Source: a virus (lineage: Duplodnaviria > Caudoviricetes). From it: a stretch of DNA of 25,913 bases. The stretch spans positions 1 through 25,913 of the IMG/VR virus record IMGVR_UViG_3300037483_000503, one strand, 5' to 3'. Numbering within the stretch: the first letter of the stretch is position 1; every line of letters starts with the position of its first letter. A program made the position numbers and the translations under genes. Positions 3,533 through 20,482 of this stretch are shown piece by piece. The notes below the pieces were generated by a model. The model had not been told where the DNA came from. It made no database searches and saw nothing but the letters and a program-made list of their open reading frames with translations.

Positions 3533-3901
3533 ATATGCGGGTAGGATTTCTGCGATAGGGCTTTTTGCCGCGCTAGATTTGGTGATCGGACCCACAACGC
3601 CGTCCGCTTTTATGCCTAGCACCAACTGTAGTAGGCCCACCGCTGTTGCCCCGCCACAATTCACGGCGCAATCAAATACAGGTAGCTGCAGTTTTGAAGG
3701 CAGGTCGTCAATGCGATACTTTGCCCAATAATCGCGTAAGTATATATCGTAGGCCTCGCTGACCGTTAGCTTTTTGATATCGAGGCCGGGGTATGCGCGT
3801 TTTGAGATACCGAACTTAGTCTCACCGCCTGGGTCACCAGGGTCATTGACGTACCCTCCCTCTATCGAAATGACGAGGCGTATAGCGGTAGCCGCGTTCA
3901 T
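3434..3901 (-). CDS. Endolysin, glycoside hydrolase family 108 with C-terminal peptidoglycan-binding (PG_binding_3-like) domain
   Basis: EGGYVNDPGDPGGETKFGIS signature, YLRDYW, FDCAVN.G, DGVVGPIT and GRGWFRR. Confidence 0.95.
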   Translation of the reverse strand: MNAATAIRLVISIEGGYVNDPGDPGGETKFGISKRAYPGLDIKKLTVSEAYDIYLRDYWAKYRIDDLPSKLQLPVFDCAVNCGGATAVGLLQLVLGIKADGVVGPITKSSAAKSPIAEILPAYLAERALYYSRLDTFTYYGRGWFRRLFKIALMA

Positions 3902-4323
3902 ACGATCATCGTTTCTTTGATCAGGTCGGGTTTACGCTTTTTGTACGTTTTAAAAACCTCATAACCAAATACCTGAGCAGCGGCTAGGGTGGATGAATGC
4001 AGTACCGCCATTTTCCAGTCAAGTCCTTGAGCTACTAAGGTAGTTACGCCTAGAAACACCGATCCTCCTGATACCGCTGCCAGCTTCCATTTCGGTTGAA
4101 AATGTCGAATAGCCAGCATACCGCCTTGAATTGATAGACCGATTAGACCCAGAGTGCCCAATCCCCGCCAACCCGCAATGGCGGCTAGGAATGAAGCCCA
4201 CTCCCCCGTTGATGGCGCGTCGGCGGTGACGGTCGCCTCTATACTAGCGTCCGCCCCTAACGCGATTCGCGTAAACAACATAAATAGAAACGCGCCGAAA
4301 AACCAGAGTGTCGTTCTTTTCAT
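3898..4323 (-). CDS. Multi-pass membrane protein, putative holin (start reassigned to MKRTTLWFFG)
   Basis: The ATG at 4323 forms an ATGA overlap with the upstream 62-aa gene and the stop overlaps the endolysin start. It has an N-terminal signal-like hydrophobic segment, 2-3 further hydrophobic segments and a basic C-terminus (KTYKKRK). Confidence 0.6.
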   Translation of the reverse strand: MKRTTLWFFGAFLFMLFTRIALGADASIEATVTADAPSTGEWASFLAAIAGWRGLGTLGLIGLSIQGGMLAIRHFQPKWKLAAVSGGSVFLGVTTLVAQGLDWKMAVLHSSTLAAAQVFGYEVFKTYKKRKPDLIKETMIV

Positions 4324-4508
4324 AGCTCGTCGTCCTTTATATCTAGCCGTTGTAGGATACCGCGAATCTTCTGATGAGCCGCGTTTACGTCTTTTTGGTT
4401 CTGAGCCGTTTGCGTGTACATCCACCAAAGCCGGGATAGCAGAAACGTTCCCGTCGCCAGAATCCCTCCCGTTAGGGCTTTTGTTAGTATGTCTTGAATA
4501 TCTAGCAA
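4320..4508 (-). CDS. Small single-TM plus coiled-coil protein (holin/antiholin-like)
   Basis: TTG start with AAGGG upstream; TM segment ALTGGILATGTFLLSRLWW followed by a coiled-coil-like tail; ATGA overlap with the next gene. Confidence 0.6.
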   Translation of the reverse strand: MLDIQDILTKALTGGILATGTFLLSRLWWMYTQTAQNQKDVNAAHQKIRGILQRLDIKDDEL

Positions 4509-4552
4509 TCATTTAGCCCTTTACCTCTGGCTTAAGCCACCTACGGTGTTGT

Positions 4553-14398: not shown

Positions 14399-15261
14399 CT
14401 ATGCATAACCACGGTCGATGATACGCGTTCTGATGGCTCTAAATCCGCGCTACGATTAACATCTATATAGAAGTTTTTCATATTCATAGCCGCTTTGTAC
14501 CTGGCGTCGGCGATTTTGCGGCTCTCTTCATACGCGGGACCCATTGTCGGTCCAAAGCAAATAGCCGCTGTCTTGTGGATGGAAGCCTGCTTTAGCCTGG
14601 TTACGTCAATTATTTGATCGGCGCTGGTGATAACACTGCGTTCGGTCAAGTCGGCTATGATCATTTCTGCAGCGGCAAAGGTTTGCAGGTCCCAGTTATT
14701 TGGGTCAGTACCGCTATTATACGCTGCGCGTAGGTCTGAGTTATCTAGGTTAGCGTACTGCCCATATAGTTCGGAGTCAGTGCTAAACTTATGGCCTACA
14801 TGCTTGAGAACCACAGAAGCAGTTAGGTCGCCCGACCATGCAAATCGTGCCCAGTACATATGGTATATCTCTGTCCCCGTTAGCCCTGTAACGTCCTCGC
14901 TTCGCGATTCTCTGGCCCATAAGGAATTATCGATATCAGGTCTGAATTGGATATACCCGTCCTGCGCCAGAGATGCGCCGCTAGCGGCGGTACGATCTAC
15001 CACATCTACTGCGCTAACCCAACTACCGCCGTCCCACAACGCTACTGATACGTCCGACGATTCTGCATTAGGGGTTGCACCAACATCGAAATATTTTTGG
15101 TTGAAGGGTAACGCAGCGCCTATATAGATATAGTCCTCGGCAGCGACAAACCCTGCAACCGTAACACTACCCGCCGTGTAGTCATTTAACTGGGTAGACC
15201 AGTCAGATAGCGTACCGTCATTACTGTATATCACCCGTTGAGTGAATAGCGATATTGTCAT
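14395..15261 (-). CDS. Head-tail adaptor-like protein with an extra N-terminal beta-rich domain
   Basis: Neck position. The C-terminal ~130 aa are helical (FSTDSEL...AAEMIIADL...LKQASIHKTAAIC...ARYKAAM) as in gp15/gp6-like adaptors; the N-terminal ~155 aa are beta-rich and aromatic. Confidence 0.55.
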   Translation of the reverse strand: MTISLFTQRVIYSNDGTLSDWSTQLNDYTAGSVTVAGFVAAEDYIYIGAALPFNQKYFDVGATPNAESSDVSVALWDGGSWVSAVDVVDRTAASGASLAQDGYIQFRPDIDNSLWARESRSEDVTGLTGTEIYHMYWARFAWSGDLTASVVLKHVGHKFSTDSELYGQYANLDNSDLRAAYNSGTDPNNWDLQTFAAAEMIIADLTERSVITSADQIIDVTRLKQASIHKTAAICFGPTMGPAYEESRKIADARYKAAMNMKNFYIDVNRSADLEPSERVSSTVVMHR

Positions 15262-16262
15262 GGGTTAAATATTCTCCCCAGTACAGCGGCCCGCGCTTTA
15301 AGTTGCGTTAGGTAATCAGGTAATTCCTGTAGCGATTGTTTCACCAAACTAGCCCGGTTTTCAAGCGCATACTCAAATGATTCAGCAAAGGAGCGACCTT
15401 TTCGGTACTTACCGGCGGGTACATCCCACTCAGGCCAGTCAGGTACGACCGCTGACGCCCCCGCTACGGTAGCTTCCTGCCAGGCTATATTTGACTTGGT
15501 GCGGTTAAATGCGTGGTCCTGTAAAGGGACTATCACGACTGAGGGCTTGAGCGCTATGAACTGCTCAAAGTATCGGAACGTATCCGTAATGGGTTTGAAG
15601 TGCCTCCACTTTTTGCCGGCCATACGGCCCTCTAGTCCCCAGTGCGGATGACCGAGCGTAATCAACTCGTAGTCGGGGTGCGCATCAGCGATTGTCAGTA
15701 TGTCGTCGATGTAGCCCTCCATATCCGCAAAGTGAGAAGGCCCGCCGCGCCAAGCGATCACCTTGTTAGGCTCATAGTCATCAGCATACCGAGGAATGGT
15801 CAAGGGCCATGCATTGGGGATGACGTCGATATCAGAGCGAAATGGCCCTAGGCATTCTTTAAGATCAGGGGTTGATACCGTTACCGCATCAGCATGCCGT
15901 AGGAAAAATTCGATACGTTGTTTTTGATCAGGGGTTTGGTACGTGCCCCACGTATAATTAGACATAGGAACGCTGAATAGGTTGTCATCGTAGTCTACCC
16001 ATACCTTACGACCCATACGTTTAGCCGCTTGCATTAGACTAATACAATCTTCTTTGAAGGGCCGGGTTATGTAGAAGCAATCATACTCCGCGATATCGGG
16101 CCAGGATAGCGACCGTCCGGGCCTTAAAAGTTCGACGTCTACCCTAGCAAAGTTTTGCCGGGTCAAATCGTACATGGGCAGTACGCCACGATAAAAGGAG
16201 TACGCGTTGGAAGGGTTATCACCAACTATTAGGACTTTTACGTTGCCATTAGATGTAATCAA
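15258..16262 (-). CDS. Glycosyltransferase, GT-B fold (GT4-like)
   Basis: Motifs VWVDYDDNLF, ADAVTVSTPDL, VIPNA, IAWRGGPSH..D and VPLQDHAFNRTKSNIAWQEATVAG. TTG start overlaps the GT2 stop. Confidence 0.85.
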   Translation of the reverse strand: MITSNGNVKVLIVGDNPSNAYSFYRGVLPMYDLTRQNFARVDVELLRPGRSLSWPDIAEYDCFYITRPFKEDCISLMQAAKRMGRKVWVDYDDNLFSVPMSNYTWGTYQTPDQKQRIEFFLRHADAVTVSTPDLKECLGPFRSDIDVIPNAWPLTIPRYADDYEPNKVIAWRGGPSHFADMEGYIDDILTIADAHPDYELITLGHPHWGLEGRMAGKKWRHFKPITDTFRYFEQFIALKPSVVIVPLQDHAFNRTKSNIAWQEATVAGASAVVPDWPEWDVPAGKYRKGRSFAESFEYALENRASLVKQSLQELPDYLTQLKARAAVLGRIFNP

Positions 16263-17023
16263 AGCGGTTCCTCCGGTGCGGGCCAGGGTATGTAGTAGTT
16301 GTCATCTCGGTATAGAGCTAGCTTACTTTCGTAGTACTGGCGCAAATCCGCAAGGGATTTATCCTTTGTAGTGCGAAGCGGGTCTTTTAGTATCCCGTCA
16401 CCTAAGTGTCTGGCCTTGGCGTCTACTATGTAATAGTTGCGAAATCCCGCAACGGTTGCTCGGTGATGATAGTCGCTATCCTCATAGCCGTATGGGTGAA
16501 ACGCGGGATCGAAGGCCCCGACCTTATCGAGTAGCTCACGAGTTTTCAACTTTACGCCGAATAGCGGCTTATCAAACGGTCTTAGATCTACCTCAGCGAG
16601 ACCGCCCTTACGCGTAGGTAGTGACTGGCGATTGGTGGTCTGCCCCTGCCAGGTGATACCGACCATACCCGTATTACCTATGTTTTTGGCGTGCCAAATC
16701 ATGTAGCGAAGCCAGTCGCGGGGCATATGGTAGTCGTTACCGAGTTGAACGACGAATTCACCCCTCGACCGCATAATAAGCTGATTCAAGGTACGTGCTA
16801 CACCCTCGTTTTTGCTATTCATACGCTCGTATGCTAATCGAGGTTCGGTCTTTGAGATACCGTACCTAATGCATTGGGGGTCTGCGCTACCGTTATCGGC
16901 CCATAGGATTTCGGCGTTGGATAAGTCGATCCCACAAATAGCTAGGTTATACTCCAGGTTTTCTACACAACCCGGATACCTATTGATCGTCATGTACAAT
17001 ATGGACACTGAAGGGATGTTCAC
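16259..17023 (-). CDS. Glycosyltransferase family 2 (GT-A fold)
   Basis: Motifs VSILYMTINR, EILWADNGSAD, NEGVARTLN, GEFVVQLGND and VGAFDPAFHPYGYEDSDYHHR. GTG start overlaps the deacetylase stop. Confidence 0.9.
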   Translation of the reverse strand: MNIPSVSILYMTINRYPGCVENLEYNLAICGIDLSNAEILWADNGSADPQCIRYGISKTEPRLAYERMNSKNEGVARTLNQLIMRSRGEFVVQLGNDYHMPRDWLRYMIWHAKNIGNTGMVGITWQGQTTNRQSLPTRKGGLAEVDLRPFDKPLFGVKLKTRELLDKVGAFDPAFHPYGYEDSDYHHRATVAGFRNYYIVDAKARHLGDGILKDPLRTTKDKSLADLRQYYESKLALYRDDNYYIPWPAPEEPL

Positions 17024-17535
17024 AAGTATGACCTTCCGGTTTGAAATGGGTCTGCGTCTACGCCGTCCCCCACTACGAACGCGCGTTCGTACCCCTCACC
17101 GGATACGGCCTTACGCACGCGAGCGTCCTGCGCGCCGTACGGATACGCGAAATATCTCATAGGGAAGGGAGGCGCTACCTCGCGTGCTAGTTCCACGTCA
17201 TTGACCTGGGTTAGGTTGGCGTGGCTCCAGCTATGCCAACCTATTTCGCAATTGTAATGGGCGGCCATACTTATGACCTGGTCCCAACTCGCGAACATCT
17301 CAGGAGGCATATTTACATCAAATATATTGTCTCCGCCTACGTAGTCACCAGTTATAAACAGTATAGGCTTGGTTTTGGCGTGTATTAGTGCCCTTCGATG
17401 CGCATACACGTTGGCGTATACCCCGTCGAAAGTTAGGCGGTCACCCGACTCCATAGCCCTGTTGATCTCACCCGGGGTATTATAATTTTCATTGTAAGCG
17501 ACGGGCGCGACGTTGTGTAATACGCGGAATATCAT
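17020..17535 (-). CDS. Polysaccharide deacetylase (CE4 / NodB-homology, IcaB/PgaB-like), compact with no signal peptide
   Basis: Motif 1 variant LTFDGVY, metal-binding EIGWHSWSH, FAYPYG; AGGAG upstream. Confidence 0.85.
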   Translation of the reverse strand: MIFRVLHNVAPVAYNENYNTPGEINRAMESGDRLTFDGVYANVYAHRRALIHAKTKPILFITGDYVGGDNIFDVNMPPEMFASWDQVISMAAHYNCEIGWHSWSHANLTQVNDVELAREVAPPFPMRYFAYPYGAQDARVRKAVSGEGYERAFVVGDGVDADPFQTGRSYL

Positions 17536-17560
17536 ATATTACATGCGCTCCTATTTCCGA

Positions 17561-18085
17561 TCAGGGTTTGTAGAGGCGTATCCTTTGACACGGATATGCG
17601 CGGTAGGGCCTTATGTCAACCGTTTTGACCAGTCTCACCCCCAAGTCATCCGTGATTACCTCAATGCCCTGCTCCCAATCCGGTACGCCCGCAATTAGAA
17701 AATGCGTTAATTCGTGCCTATGCTTAGCCATCCAATAGCGTATACGGCTCGTTTCGTAGAAGGGATACAGCACCCCCATAGCACATATCAGGTCGAATTT
17801 TTTCGCACTATTTAAAACAGGGTCGAAACGGGATACTGTCGGGGGGAAACGCTCCATCGCATCAGCGCTCACGTCGAAGCCCCACTTGTCTACGGCAGGT
17901 AGGCTATCCGTGATGAAACCCTCCCCTGCGCCTATGTCCAGCGCCGTTCGGTACGGCAGTGCGGGTATCCTTTCGTGCGCAAGAAGTATATCGCGTACTA
18001 GGGCCAGGCGTAGCCAGTCGTCAGGAGTATCCCGGTACTTAAAGGGGTCGGGTCTACTATAATTTTCAGTATGTATTTTAGTCAT
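17561..18085 (-). CDS. Class I SAM-dependent methyltransferase, NodS-like
   Basis: SAM motif ALDIGAGEG, GFDVSADA and FDLICAMGVLYP. The N-terminal Y.RPDPFKY resembles the DPW.Y start of NodS-family N-methyltransferases. Confidence 0.8.
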   Translation of the reverse strand: MTKIHTENYSRPDPFKYRDTPDDWLRLALVRDILLAHERIPALPYRTALDIGAGEGFITDSLPAVDKWGFDVSADAMERFPPTVSRFDPVLNSAKKFDLICAMGVLYPFYETSRIRYWMAKHRHELTHFLIAGVPDWEQGIEVITDDLGVRLVKTVDIRPYRAYPCQRIRLYKP

Positions 18086-18166: not shown

Positions 18167-18586
18167 CTACTTTGAAGGCTTCATTACGCCTACGCATATC
18201 GTAATCTTACCCGCTGTCAATGCAGCGGTGCCGATAGACATAGAGATAACATCAGCGTCATCCAACAGCCGGGGCATATCAGTTAACGAATCCTCCTTCA
18301 GTACAGTGCCGGAAGCGATACCGCTTGCGCCTGTAGACGCTGCGTTTTCGAAAACAGTGCCGGAATTTGTATCACCGAAGGACACATCACCCGTTGTTGC
18401 CGATGTAACTGTAGTATCTACATAGTAGTAAAAGTCAGTTACCAGACAAGCGCCGTCCGCTGTAAACACGTTGAAATCACCCGTCGCACCCCCGTCAACG
18501 GCGTAGTCCCATTGTGCTTTATAAAACCTTTTTTCCAGTGACGCGGGAGCGCCAATGTTTCGCATTTGGTCTAAGTTAGTAGCCAT
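18167..18586 (-). CDS. Capsid decoration / cement-like protein (putative)
   Basis: 139 aa directly after the MCP; beta-rich, Gly/Thr/Ser/Ala-rich, ending LTAGKITICV as in small jelly-roll virion proteins. Confidence 0.6.
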   Translation of the reverse strand: MATNLDQMRNIGAPASLEKRFYKAQWDYAVDGGATGDFNVFTADGACLVTDFYYYVDTTVTSATTGDVSFGDTNSGTVFENAASTGASGIASGTVLKEDSLTDMPRLLDDADVISMSIGTAALTAGKITICVGVMKPSK

Positions 18587-18671: not shown

Positions 18672-19676
18672 TCACGACGTTCCACGCGTAACGATACACT
18701 TGCTCGCATGGTCATGGCCGATCACAGCCCCCGCCAAAACTCGTACACCTAGATAGGCAGTGTATTTGCCAGCTGGGCGGTTATCAGTTAAAAACCATTC
18801 GACATTGCCGTATACGCTATGCATGAATGAAGGTACGAACGACAACCCTACATCCTGTGTCGCCGCTGCCCCCGTATCGAGGGATAAAAAATTGTCGTCA
18901 TTATTTTCGAGAATATTAAAGCCCCAACGCTGCTGGACAAACTGACCCGCTACCGTGGGAGTTTTCTCGTCTACGTAGTCATTGCTCACCATGGTAGATG
19001 TGCCAAGGAGATCCTGGTAGTACTGTGGGTCTAACAACGTATACCAGGGCTCTGTTTTTGACCATTTGGCCTTAGCTGCCAGCTTGCGGCAATTACCTAT
19101 GGCCGTAGCGTTGAAATCGGTTACTCCACCTAGTAGATGGTCAGGGCTAGAGGTCGATGCGCTAACCAAGGAGAATAAGTACGCGTCCATTTTCAACGCT
19201 AGCTCGGTCTCCATTTTGATTCGCAATTCTGATTCGGGATTAGTTAACTGAGTTTGCAGAGGTACTAGGTCGTCTAGCTCGATAACGTGGTCAATGACTT
19301 GATCGACGATCAATGATTTTCGGGCAGAGTTAAGTTGTTGAGGTGAAAATTGCTCGTGCCCTGACCCGATAGCTCTACGGTCGGCCGTACCTACCTGGAA
19401 CTGGGTGATATGCACCCTGTCGCCTGGATTAGCGATTTGGCCTTCGTAGTCCCTATTAGTCAACGCGGTTAATTGCGCTCTAGCTTTTAGTTCGTCAACC
19501 GTTAGCGGCGACCATGCTTGGGGGACTTGATTGGCTAGCTCACTTACTAGCGTAATATTACATAGTGATAGGTGATTCCATATGTCCGCATAGGGTAGAT
19601 CCATTGCTTGGCCGTAAGCTACGACGCAAGCTGATAATAGGCCAATGGCCATGATACAACGCATGATAAAACTCAT
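18672..19676 (-). CDS. Major capsid protein (HK97 fold, P22-coat-like) with N-terminal hydrophobic leader
   Basis: Follows the scaffold gene; RBS GGAGGAG; motifs VPQAWS, NRDYEGQIANPGDRVHI, LIVDQ, LALKMDAYL and WGFNILE. Confidence 0.85.
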   Translation of the reverse strand: MSFIMRCIMAIGLLSACVVAYGQAMDLPYADIWNHLSLCNITLVSELANQVPQAWSPLTVDELKARAQLTALTNRDYEGQIANPGDRVHITQFQVGTADRRAIGSGHEQFSPQQLNSARKSLIVDQVIDHVIELDDLVPLQTQLTNPESELRIKMETELALKMDAYLFSLVSASTSSPDHLLGGVTDFNATAIGNCRKLAAKAKWSKTEPWYTLLDPQYYQDLLGTSTMVSNDYVDEKTPTVAGQFVQQRWGFNILENNDDNFLSLDTGAAATQDVGLSFVPSFMHSVYGNVEWFLTDNRPAGKYTAYLGVRVLAGAVIGHDHASKCIVTRGTS

Positions 19677-19732
19677 TAGGGCTCTCCTCCGTGAATAGCC
19701 TGAGAAAATTTAGGGATATAAGCGTTGATAGA

Positions 19733-20482
19733 CTAGTGCTTTGCTAGCCCTGCCATCATACGTTTATAATTTTTCTTTTTGTCTGCTAATGGCATTTTTA
19801 ACCATGCATCGTGGCTGATGGCTCCTTTAGAGTCATCGTTATCACCAGGTGCGTCGGAGCTAGTACTGCCGTTTCCGCCCGTCTTTTTTAGGACTTCAGG
19901 ATAGTCCTTTTTGAATTGTTTAACGGCGCGCAACAATGTCGCCTTATCAATATCGCCCGTTTCCTCGTCGATTTCGATATCATCGGCTTCGATAAGGTGA
20001 GCGAACTTTGATTCTAACACGATACCTGATCCCAACGCCTCGCGAAAGGCTTGCACCTTCGCAGCGTACTGTAGTCGGCCTAATGCGTCCTGTGCTTTAG
20101 CCTCCGCCTTAGCGGCTTTTTCTTCCGCCTCTTCAGCTAAGGTCTTATAATCCTCATCAGCTTTCAGCTTATCGCTACGCCGTTTCGCTTCAGCCTTATC
20201 GCGTTTTTCTTTATCCTTACGCAAGGCTTCGTTTTCTTTTTGCAAACGCCGATGTTTTGCGAGTAACGCCTTGGGGTTTTTTATGCTCTCATCGTCCTTG
20301 TCGTCGTCATCGTCTTTGTCGTCGTCTTTGCCATCTTTATCGTCGTCATCGTCTTTGTCATCGTCTTTGTCGTCGTCTTTGTCATCTTTATCGTCGCCGT
20401 CTTTATCGTCTTTGCCTGACCCGCCGCCGTTATCGCCGTGGTCACGCCAAAACATTCTACTTATACGCGGGGCTAGTAACAT
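19733..20482 (-). CDS. Capsid scaffolding protein
   Basis: Upstream of the MCP; highly charged and coiled-coil (EDYKTLAEE, VKQFKKDYPEVL, WLKMPLADK); acidic low-complexity N-terminal region. Confidence 0.8.
   Translation of the reverse strand: MLLAPRISRMFWRDHGDNGGGSGKDDKDGDDKDDKDDDKDDDKDDDDDKDGKDDDKDDDDDKDDESIKNPKALLAKHRRLQKENEALRKDKEKRDKAEAKRRSDKLKADEDYKTLAEEAEEKAAKAEAKAQDALGRLQYAAKVQAFREALGSGIVLESKFAHLIEADDIEIDEETGDIDKATLLRAVKQFKKDYPEVLKKTGGNGSTSSDAPGDNDDSKGAISHDAWLKMPLADKKKNYKRMMAGLAKH
20288..20412 (-). repeat. Imperfect coding tandem repeat (GAC/GAT/AAA codons) encoding an Asp/Lys tract (DDKDD)n
   Basis: The + strand reads tcgtctttgtcgtcgtctttg.../tcatcgtctttgtc repeatedly; the protein reads KDDKDGDDKDDKDDDKDDDKDDDDDKDGKDDDKDDDDDKDD. 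Confidence 0.9.

Follow-up and report, generated by a model that had tools for sequence, protein, structure and literature searches.

The major capsid gene of this phage encodes a 39-residue leader ahead of an HK97-fold coat protein. Judged from sequence comparisons, this leader is real, conserved within a clade, repeatedly gained in the family and hydrophobic, and the coat protein is very unlikely to be a lipoprotein. As to its function, we tentatively favour the reading that the leader is a removable membrane-binding propeptide which a host peptidase would cut; that it binds the membrane, in which orientation, and that it is cleaved, and by which enzyme, are all conditional parts of this proposal.

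The window, i.e. the whole stretch of 25,913 nucleotides that was analysed, is a virus record of 25.9 kb (68% complete) of an uncultured phage; the run that matches it best is a sediment metagenome, from which it may come. The coat gene and its parts are arranged as follows:

19676..18672, minus strand: coat (major capsid) gene, a 334-aa ORF
19683..19690, minus strand: Shine–Dalgarno site GGAGGAG ahead of the capsid gene, ranking with the strongest when 23 starts were scored
19602..19676, minus strand: leader residues 1–25, an n-region (Arg6) followed by an uncharged hydrophobic stretch of 19 residues (7–25), from sequence and model
19560..19601, minus strand: leader residues 26–39, an acidic linker DLPYAD, a short predicted helix and the Leu38-Cys39 junction, from sequence and model
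18672..19559, minus strand: predicted HK97-fold major capsid core, residues 40–334, from PHROG 267, model and Foldseek

The whole leader (19676..19560, minus strand) is in frame with the 334-aa ORF, and its sequence is the one quoted in the original prediction. A contig of another sequencing run, possibly of the same campaign, showed no difference over positions 19549–19699, and the likely source run matched too. The leader sequence is not an assembly error. The other runs provided short identical contigs only, and in these the leader is without strain variation.

The original prediction held that a strong ribosome-binding site supports Met1 as the start and that the internal Met codons have no comparable site. 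Both points were confirmed. GGAGG ends 9 nt ahead of ATG 19676, and the pairing energy calculated with a generally known E. coli-type 16S tail is -9.5 kcal/mol for Met1 compared with -2.7 kcal/mol for Met5, -2.2 kcal/mol for Met9 and -1.7 kcal/mol for Met25, the latter lying just behind a predicted hairpin. From the sequence we infer that Met1 is the translation start, and the leader is likely translated.

The coat protein (P0001) gave no direct Pfam match but matched the major head protein family PHROG 267 with an E value of 2e-10. Its AlphaFold2 model (pLDDT 88.4, pTM 0.79) was compared with known structures by Foldseek; the best match was the Che8 capsid 8e16 (E 4.7e-12), HK97 1ohg was found with E 5.5e-9, and the TM scores by query were 0.48–0.56. 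As modelled, the coat is an HK97-fold major capsid protein, and it combines this sequence family with a place in a terminase–portal–scaffold–coat module.

On the minus strand the module comprises, in this order, the terminase, a likely portal, two conserved unknown head genes, a likely scaffold, the coat and a 139-aa protein. The terminase was recognised by family matches (Pfam, PHROGs), whereas portal and scaffold were labelled from position only. A four-gene glycosylation-like cassette follows the 139-aa gene, and then neck, tail, tape-measure and lysis genes, all on the minus strand. At 3898–4512 (minus strand) a holin-like membrane protein with a likely signal peptide adjoins a GH108 endolysin; it has no family match. 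The two neighbours of the coat gene are:

19733..20482, minus strand: likely scaffolding protein of 249 aa (position, composition, tblastn matches upstream of the coat gene in relatives)
18167..18586, minus strand: conserved 139-aa protein after the coat gene (tblastn matches in 30 of 85 loci), leaderless here

That the head module contains no recognisable prohead protease also held for the part of the genome at hand: no protease family was found in 28 ORFs scanned with Pfam, 24 ORFs scanned with PHROGs and 5 further small ORFs of the 68%-complete record, in which several head-module ORFs are without any family match.

The leader was described at the outset as having a basic residue and a hydrophobic core, and this layout proved to be common to all six members of the leader clade described below. 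In assessing it we used the lipobox rule, the (-3,-1) rule, the positive-inside rule and hydropathy scales as generally known. The best 19-residue Kyte–Doolittle mean within the first 39 aa is 2.11 for the window coat and at most 1.46 in 230 leaderless homologues. Among 20,000 random 38-codon stretches, 0.03% were both open and equally hydrophobic. On a position-free insertion scale the leader helices gave best 19-residue sums of +0.8 to +1.9, which makes them marginally membrane-spanning. The ESM Atlas returned no usable match for residues 1–60, the structure rows being generic helix pairs.

Protein searches yielded 276 coat homologues, 237 of them full-length with an N-terminus that could be anchored. 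N-terminal extensions of at least 12 aa were present in eight of the 237, and all eight are hydrophobic. Six of the extended proteins, the window coat together with P0002, P0125, P0003, P0004 and P0005, group as a single clade (98/92) within leaderless relatives in a tree of 51 rows that was built with the leaders removed. Three leaderless proteins are its sister group (joint branch 100/100); the clade is small, and two of its six members are nearly identical. A conserved leader in homologous capsid proteins had been named as a check, and the five homologues do carry hydrophobic leaders of matching length (36–39 aa). The remaining two extended proteins, P0209 and P0257, fall elsewhere in the tree, so that three lineages have extensions; three label changes were required in 200 of 200 bootstrap trees, with P0257 forming a long branch. 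P0209, P0257 and P0276, a partial protein resembling P0209, are distantly related to the window coat, and their hydrophobic leaders, of about 22 and 45–50 residues, are independent ones.

Of 80 IMG/VR loci examined, 79 had an intact 5' end, and the leader was found in none of these; in 78 of the 79 a stop codon lies no more than 18 codons ahead of the core. The leaderless loci have the same head genes as the window. Since it is absent in 79 of 79 informative IMG/VR relatives, the leader is dispensable within the family. Viral scans with the window coat, with the leader alignment A3 and with P0209 gave no matches, a scan with P0004 returned one leaderless relative only, and a metagenome scan gave one weak partial match. 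Among cultured phages, only four Rhizobium phage records were matched, weakly and with 34% coverage. One leaderless relative sits in a contig of a Bdellovibrionales MAG, which may be mis-binned, and a match was found in 2 of 401 genomes from the same phylum, a count that stands beside no control phylum. L083 and L086, leaderless relatives of the coat that lie in two such genomes, hint at the host too weakly for an assignment.

The leaders have a pattern in common rather than a sequence. Pairwise identities are 17–59% for the leaders and 51–95% for the cores; P0002 and P0003 are 49% identical in the leader and 95% in the core, and in the deep pairs the values are 17–26% and 51–63%, respectively. 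All six leaders have one or two Lys/Arg residues, 16–19 uncharged residues, an acidic linker (net -2 after the helix), a short predicted helix and finally Leu or Met followed by a small residue. Signal and pro-peptides typically change fast in sequence with their hydrophobicity kept, which packed structural parts do not.

The usual coat N-terminus was predicted to begin only at about residue 40, which agrees with a 116-row alignment: in 108 of the 110 leaderless rows the start Met aligns with Cys39. At this ancestral Met position the six leaders have C, A, A, A, S and G, each preceded by Leu or Met; the junctions compared read C/N, A/N, A/N, S/G and G/S. The start Met is removed before small residues. 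As the small residue occupies the place of the start Met of leaderless relatives, cutting after Cys39 would yield the ancestral N-terminus, the one that these relatives have once their Met is removed. This match is the main argument for cleavage, which would on sequence grounds fall between Cys39 and Asn40. The small junction residue could, on the other hand, have been left over from the joining of the extension. Host-peptidase maturation, which the original prediction had listed among its options, is compatible with the junction and with the lack of a recognised protease in the window, the cleavage itself being putative. By eye, and with residue classes from general knowledge, four of five junctions show a rhomboid-like pattern with a hydrophobic P4, a small P1 and a hydrophobic P2', and the candidate site lies after the helix, an unusual orientation; in rhomboid substrates the motif is near the N-terminal end of a type I or III membrane span. 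The positions P4, P1 and P2' are those of the rhomboid motif in the available part of PMC2941825.

According to the reading we favour, the 39-residue hydrophobic extension would keep newly made coat subunits at the inner membrane of the host, and a host peptidase would cut, likely after Cys39, leaving the ancestral N-terminus of the family. We favour the membrane propeptide because only Met1 has a strong start, because the clade has a common leader pattern that changes fast with hydrophobicity kept, because a small residue occupies the junction, and because all eight extensions are hydrophobic and lie in three separate places of the tree. The difficulty of this reading is topology. The charges, with Lys or Arg before the helix and net -2 after it in six of six leaders, predict an N-in/C-out orientation and thus export of the coat to the wrong side for assembly. 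DNA packaging requires a coat domain that remains cytoplasmic, so the helix would need to be re-entrant, surface-bound or N-out and not a working export signal. The charge pattern, the marginal helix, the dispensability of the leader, the small size of the clade and the Met38 of P0002 and P0125, which might act as an internal start, all count against the membrane reading. A broader proposal appears doubtful to us, namely that tailed phages repeatedly evolved membrane-targeting leaders on HK97-fold coats, and sporadically on scaffold and decoration proteins, with a membrane-bound precursor being released by a host membrane peptidase at a conserved site.

Several other explanations were considered. 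The leader might be a soluble miniature delta domain whose helices pack mutually or on the scaffold in the procapsid and pace assembly with no membrane step, the leader then being cut or kept inside the head. Two helices are indeed predicted (residues 3–24 and 29–37, with pLDDT 84–89 over residues 1–30), the scaffold of the window phage and that of one relative have a conserved N-terminal peptide which the leaderless sister lacks, and, in the portion of 10.1101/2022.09.09.507160 available, N-terminal extensions occur on about 35% of actinobacteriophage coats and are common on HK97-fold coats. We nevertheless regard this explanation as unlikely in view of the 16–19-residue uncharged stretch without heptad charge pattern, the low conservation of the leader sequence and the presence of a separate scaffold gene. 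Improbable, in our view, is a working Sec signal, with some of the coat being exported, cut by signal peptidase I near residue 22–24 and used for a job outside the cytoplasm, while the rest escapes export and builds heads. The n-h-c layout (basic n-region, hydrophobic core) and the N-in/C-out charges of all six leaders agree with such a signal; in one relative (L023, 1 of 74 loci) the decoration-like protein has a classic signal peptide that ends in A-Q-A. Sites obeying the (-3,-1) rule are present in five of five leaders tested, but their places differ and their frequency is that of chance: such sites arise in 50–94% of shuffles, with 94% for residues 2–25 of the window leader, so that they carry no weight. 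The AYG/QA site put forward initially is no better than chance, and the conserved candidate site is the one between Cys39 and Asn40. A cut at residue 22–24 would moreover leave 15–17 foreign residues on the N-arm, exported coat is not packageable with DNA, and a second start is not evident in the window. It is still more improbable that the leader hides or sequesters unassembled coat from a capsid-sensing host defence and is then shed, a role that could also sit atop the membrane-propeptide reading. The fast change of the leader and its repeated independent gain would fit, and capsid proteins trigger the Thoeris defence according to the accessible part of PMC12578639.

We consider it very improbable that the leader is untranslated or bypassed, with the coat starting at or near the junction. 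P0002 and P0125 have a Met38 that is a possible internal start, and the start codons of the homologues are gene-caller choices. The window sequence, however, contains neither a canonical start codon nor a Shine–Dalgarno site between Met25 and the core, and codons 38–39 at the junction are CTA and TGT, so no start codon exists there. The frame is also open and hydrophobic in six proteins with cores as low as 51% identical, in contrast to the leaderless relatives with their upstream stops. Least probable of all, with hardly any room left for it, is a lipoprotein coat with a lipid on Cys17 and a signal removed by signal peptidase II. The LSAC lipobox is present in the window protein as originally described: it lies within residues 1–25, fits the lipobox consensus and, together with the basic n-region and the hydrophobic core, resembles bacterial lipoprotein signal peptides. 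It is not conserved in the other five clade members, though, and matches in one of six leaders only. At this position P0002 and P0125 have F-S-L-C, and the nearest relatives F-S-L-C or F-S-L-G; P0003 and P0004 have leaders without any Cys, and P0005 has a Cys13 outside the lipobox. A Cys conserved in homologous leaders, which had been proposed as a check, is thus missing from two of the six. A lipobox arises by chance in 5.4% of shuffles of residues 2–25, and a Cys has to reach the outer face of the inner membrane to be lipidated. The lipidated capsid suggested in the original prediction is unlikely given a lipobox in one of six leaders.

The scaffold, which has a fair ribosome-binding site, starts with a 16-residue basic and aromatic peptide ending in FWRDHG (20435–20482, minus strand) that precedes an acidic region. 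Its sole homologue among 1,399 candidates, P0277, which is likely from the same phage as P0003, keeps FWRDHGDNGG; the scaffold of the leaderless sister L002 has no such N-terminal peptide. The peptide may have been gained together with the coat leader. A comparison by eye found no motif common to the coat junction and the scaffold peptide, and a pattern search with the peptide gave 0 matches. The N-terminal part of the scaffold also contains a long Asp/Lys repeat of the KDDD type (20284–20410, minus strand), in place of which P0277 has an Asp/Pro/Gly repeat. If its TAG is read through, the scaffold frame has 18 more open codons, up to a TAATG that overlaps with Met1 (19676–19735, minus strand). 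Recoding of this TAG was rejected, as TAG, TGA and TAA all end intact genes, and nothing elsewhere pointed to recoding. The 139-aa protein is likely a decoration or cement protein, a label given from position. Leaders were also seen on such neighbours in relatives with a leaderless coat: the scaffold of L016 (4740 onward, plus strand) has a hydrophobic N-terminal leader with a strong GAGGAGG site, and the signal peptide of L023 mentioned above belongs to the homologue of the 139-aa protein (3385 onward, plus strand).

In the textbook picture HK97-type heads assemble from soluble subunits. A search of the open-access literature, with subscription journals largely outside its scope, found no description of a membrane-type leader on a tailed-phage coat; PMC13700489 deals with a pilin and does not bear on the question. 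If true, the broader proposal given above would mean an undescribed membrane step in HK97-lineage head assembly, comparable to the procoat of filamentous phages, and a membrane-type coat leader gained at least three times in the family would point to a missing head-assembly step and an unknown role of a host peptidase. The case would also offer a clean test, as there is a sister lineage without leader and the predicted cut restores the N-terminus of that sister.

For comparison, in phage 80alpha the host enzyme Prp removes 13–14 residues at an F/A site common to coat and scaffold, and the phage remains viable if its coat leader is left uncut (PMC5744158, available part). The cleavage itself is a precedent for the membrane propeptide reading, whereas its dispensability counts against it. 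As in 80alpha, the window phage has a short N-terminal extension on an HK97-fold coat, a separate scaffold gene, an extra scaffold peptide and no need for a phage protease; unlike in 80alpha, the leader is 39 aa long with a membrane-type helix and has no clear motif in common with the scaffold peptide. Compared by eye, neither an L27-like motif nor an F/A cut in coat and scaffold was found. The delta domain of HK97 is likewise an N-terminal extension of an HK97-fold coat and is removed, as is likely here (10.1101/2022.09.09.507160 and PMC3185693, parts available). As far as these sources extend, however, delta domains are larger, act as soluble scaffolds and are processed by a protease of the phage, whereas the leader here has 39 hydrophobic residues, a scaffold gene is present and the scanned ORFs of the 68%-complete record contain no protease family.

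The remaining precedents come from the accessible part of a 2011 review (PMC3185693). In f1/M13 a hydrophobic leader on the major coat protein (procoat) is removed by signal peptidase, a membrane peptidase of the host; the corresponding step is putative here. pVIII is, however, a transmembrane protein of a membrane-extruded virus, whereas the present coat would form a cytoplasm-assembled HK97-fold shell and has no clear second span. The T4 prohead assembles on the inner membrane via a separate membrane chaperone that binds the portal, and in that part of the review membrane association is described as shown for no phage other than T4. Membrane-bound head assembly in T4 is a precedent for the membrane reading, with the difference that in our proposal the anchor would sit on every coat subunit.

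The original prediction had possibly linked the leader to the adjacent glycosylation cassette:

15258..18085, minus strand: four-gene cassette with a methyltransferase-like gene, a polysaccharide deacetylase, a GT2 and a second glycosyltransferase (Pfam, PHROGs)

This link found no support. None of the four genes had a tblastn match in 85 relative loci, which would be compatible with a link to the leader since those loci are leaderless. All four also stand together, differently ordered, in an unrelated phage of 44 kb (G402; L087, 6201–9023), the coat of which is fused to an N-terminal protease-like region (so labelled by inspection) and has no such leader. The cassette is mobile. In 52 relatives the slot that it occupies, after the 139-aa gene and before the neck gene, is hypervariable, measuring about 0.2 to 5.3 kb. 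Of 67 slot proteins found, 9 duplicates were dropped and 58 were scanned, and no glycosyltransferase family was found among these 58. The slot in L002–L081 holds fibre-like proteins, a patatin, a C92 peptidase, a thioredoxin, and cement and collagen domains.
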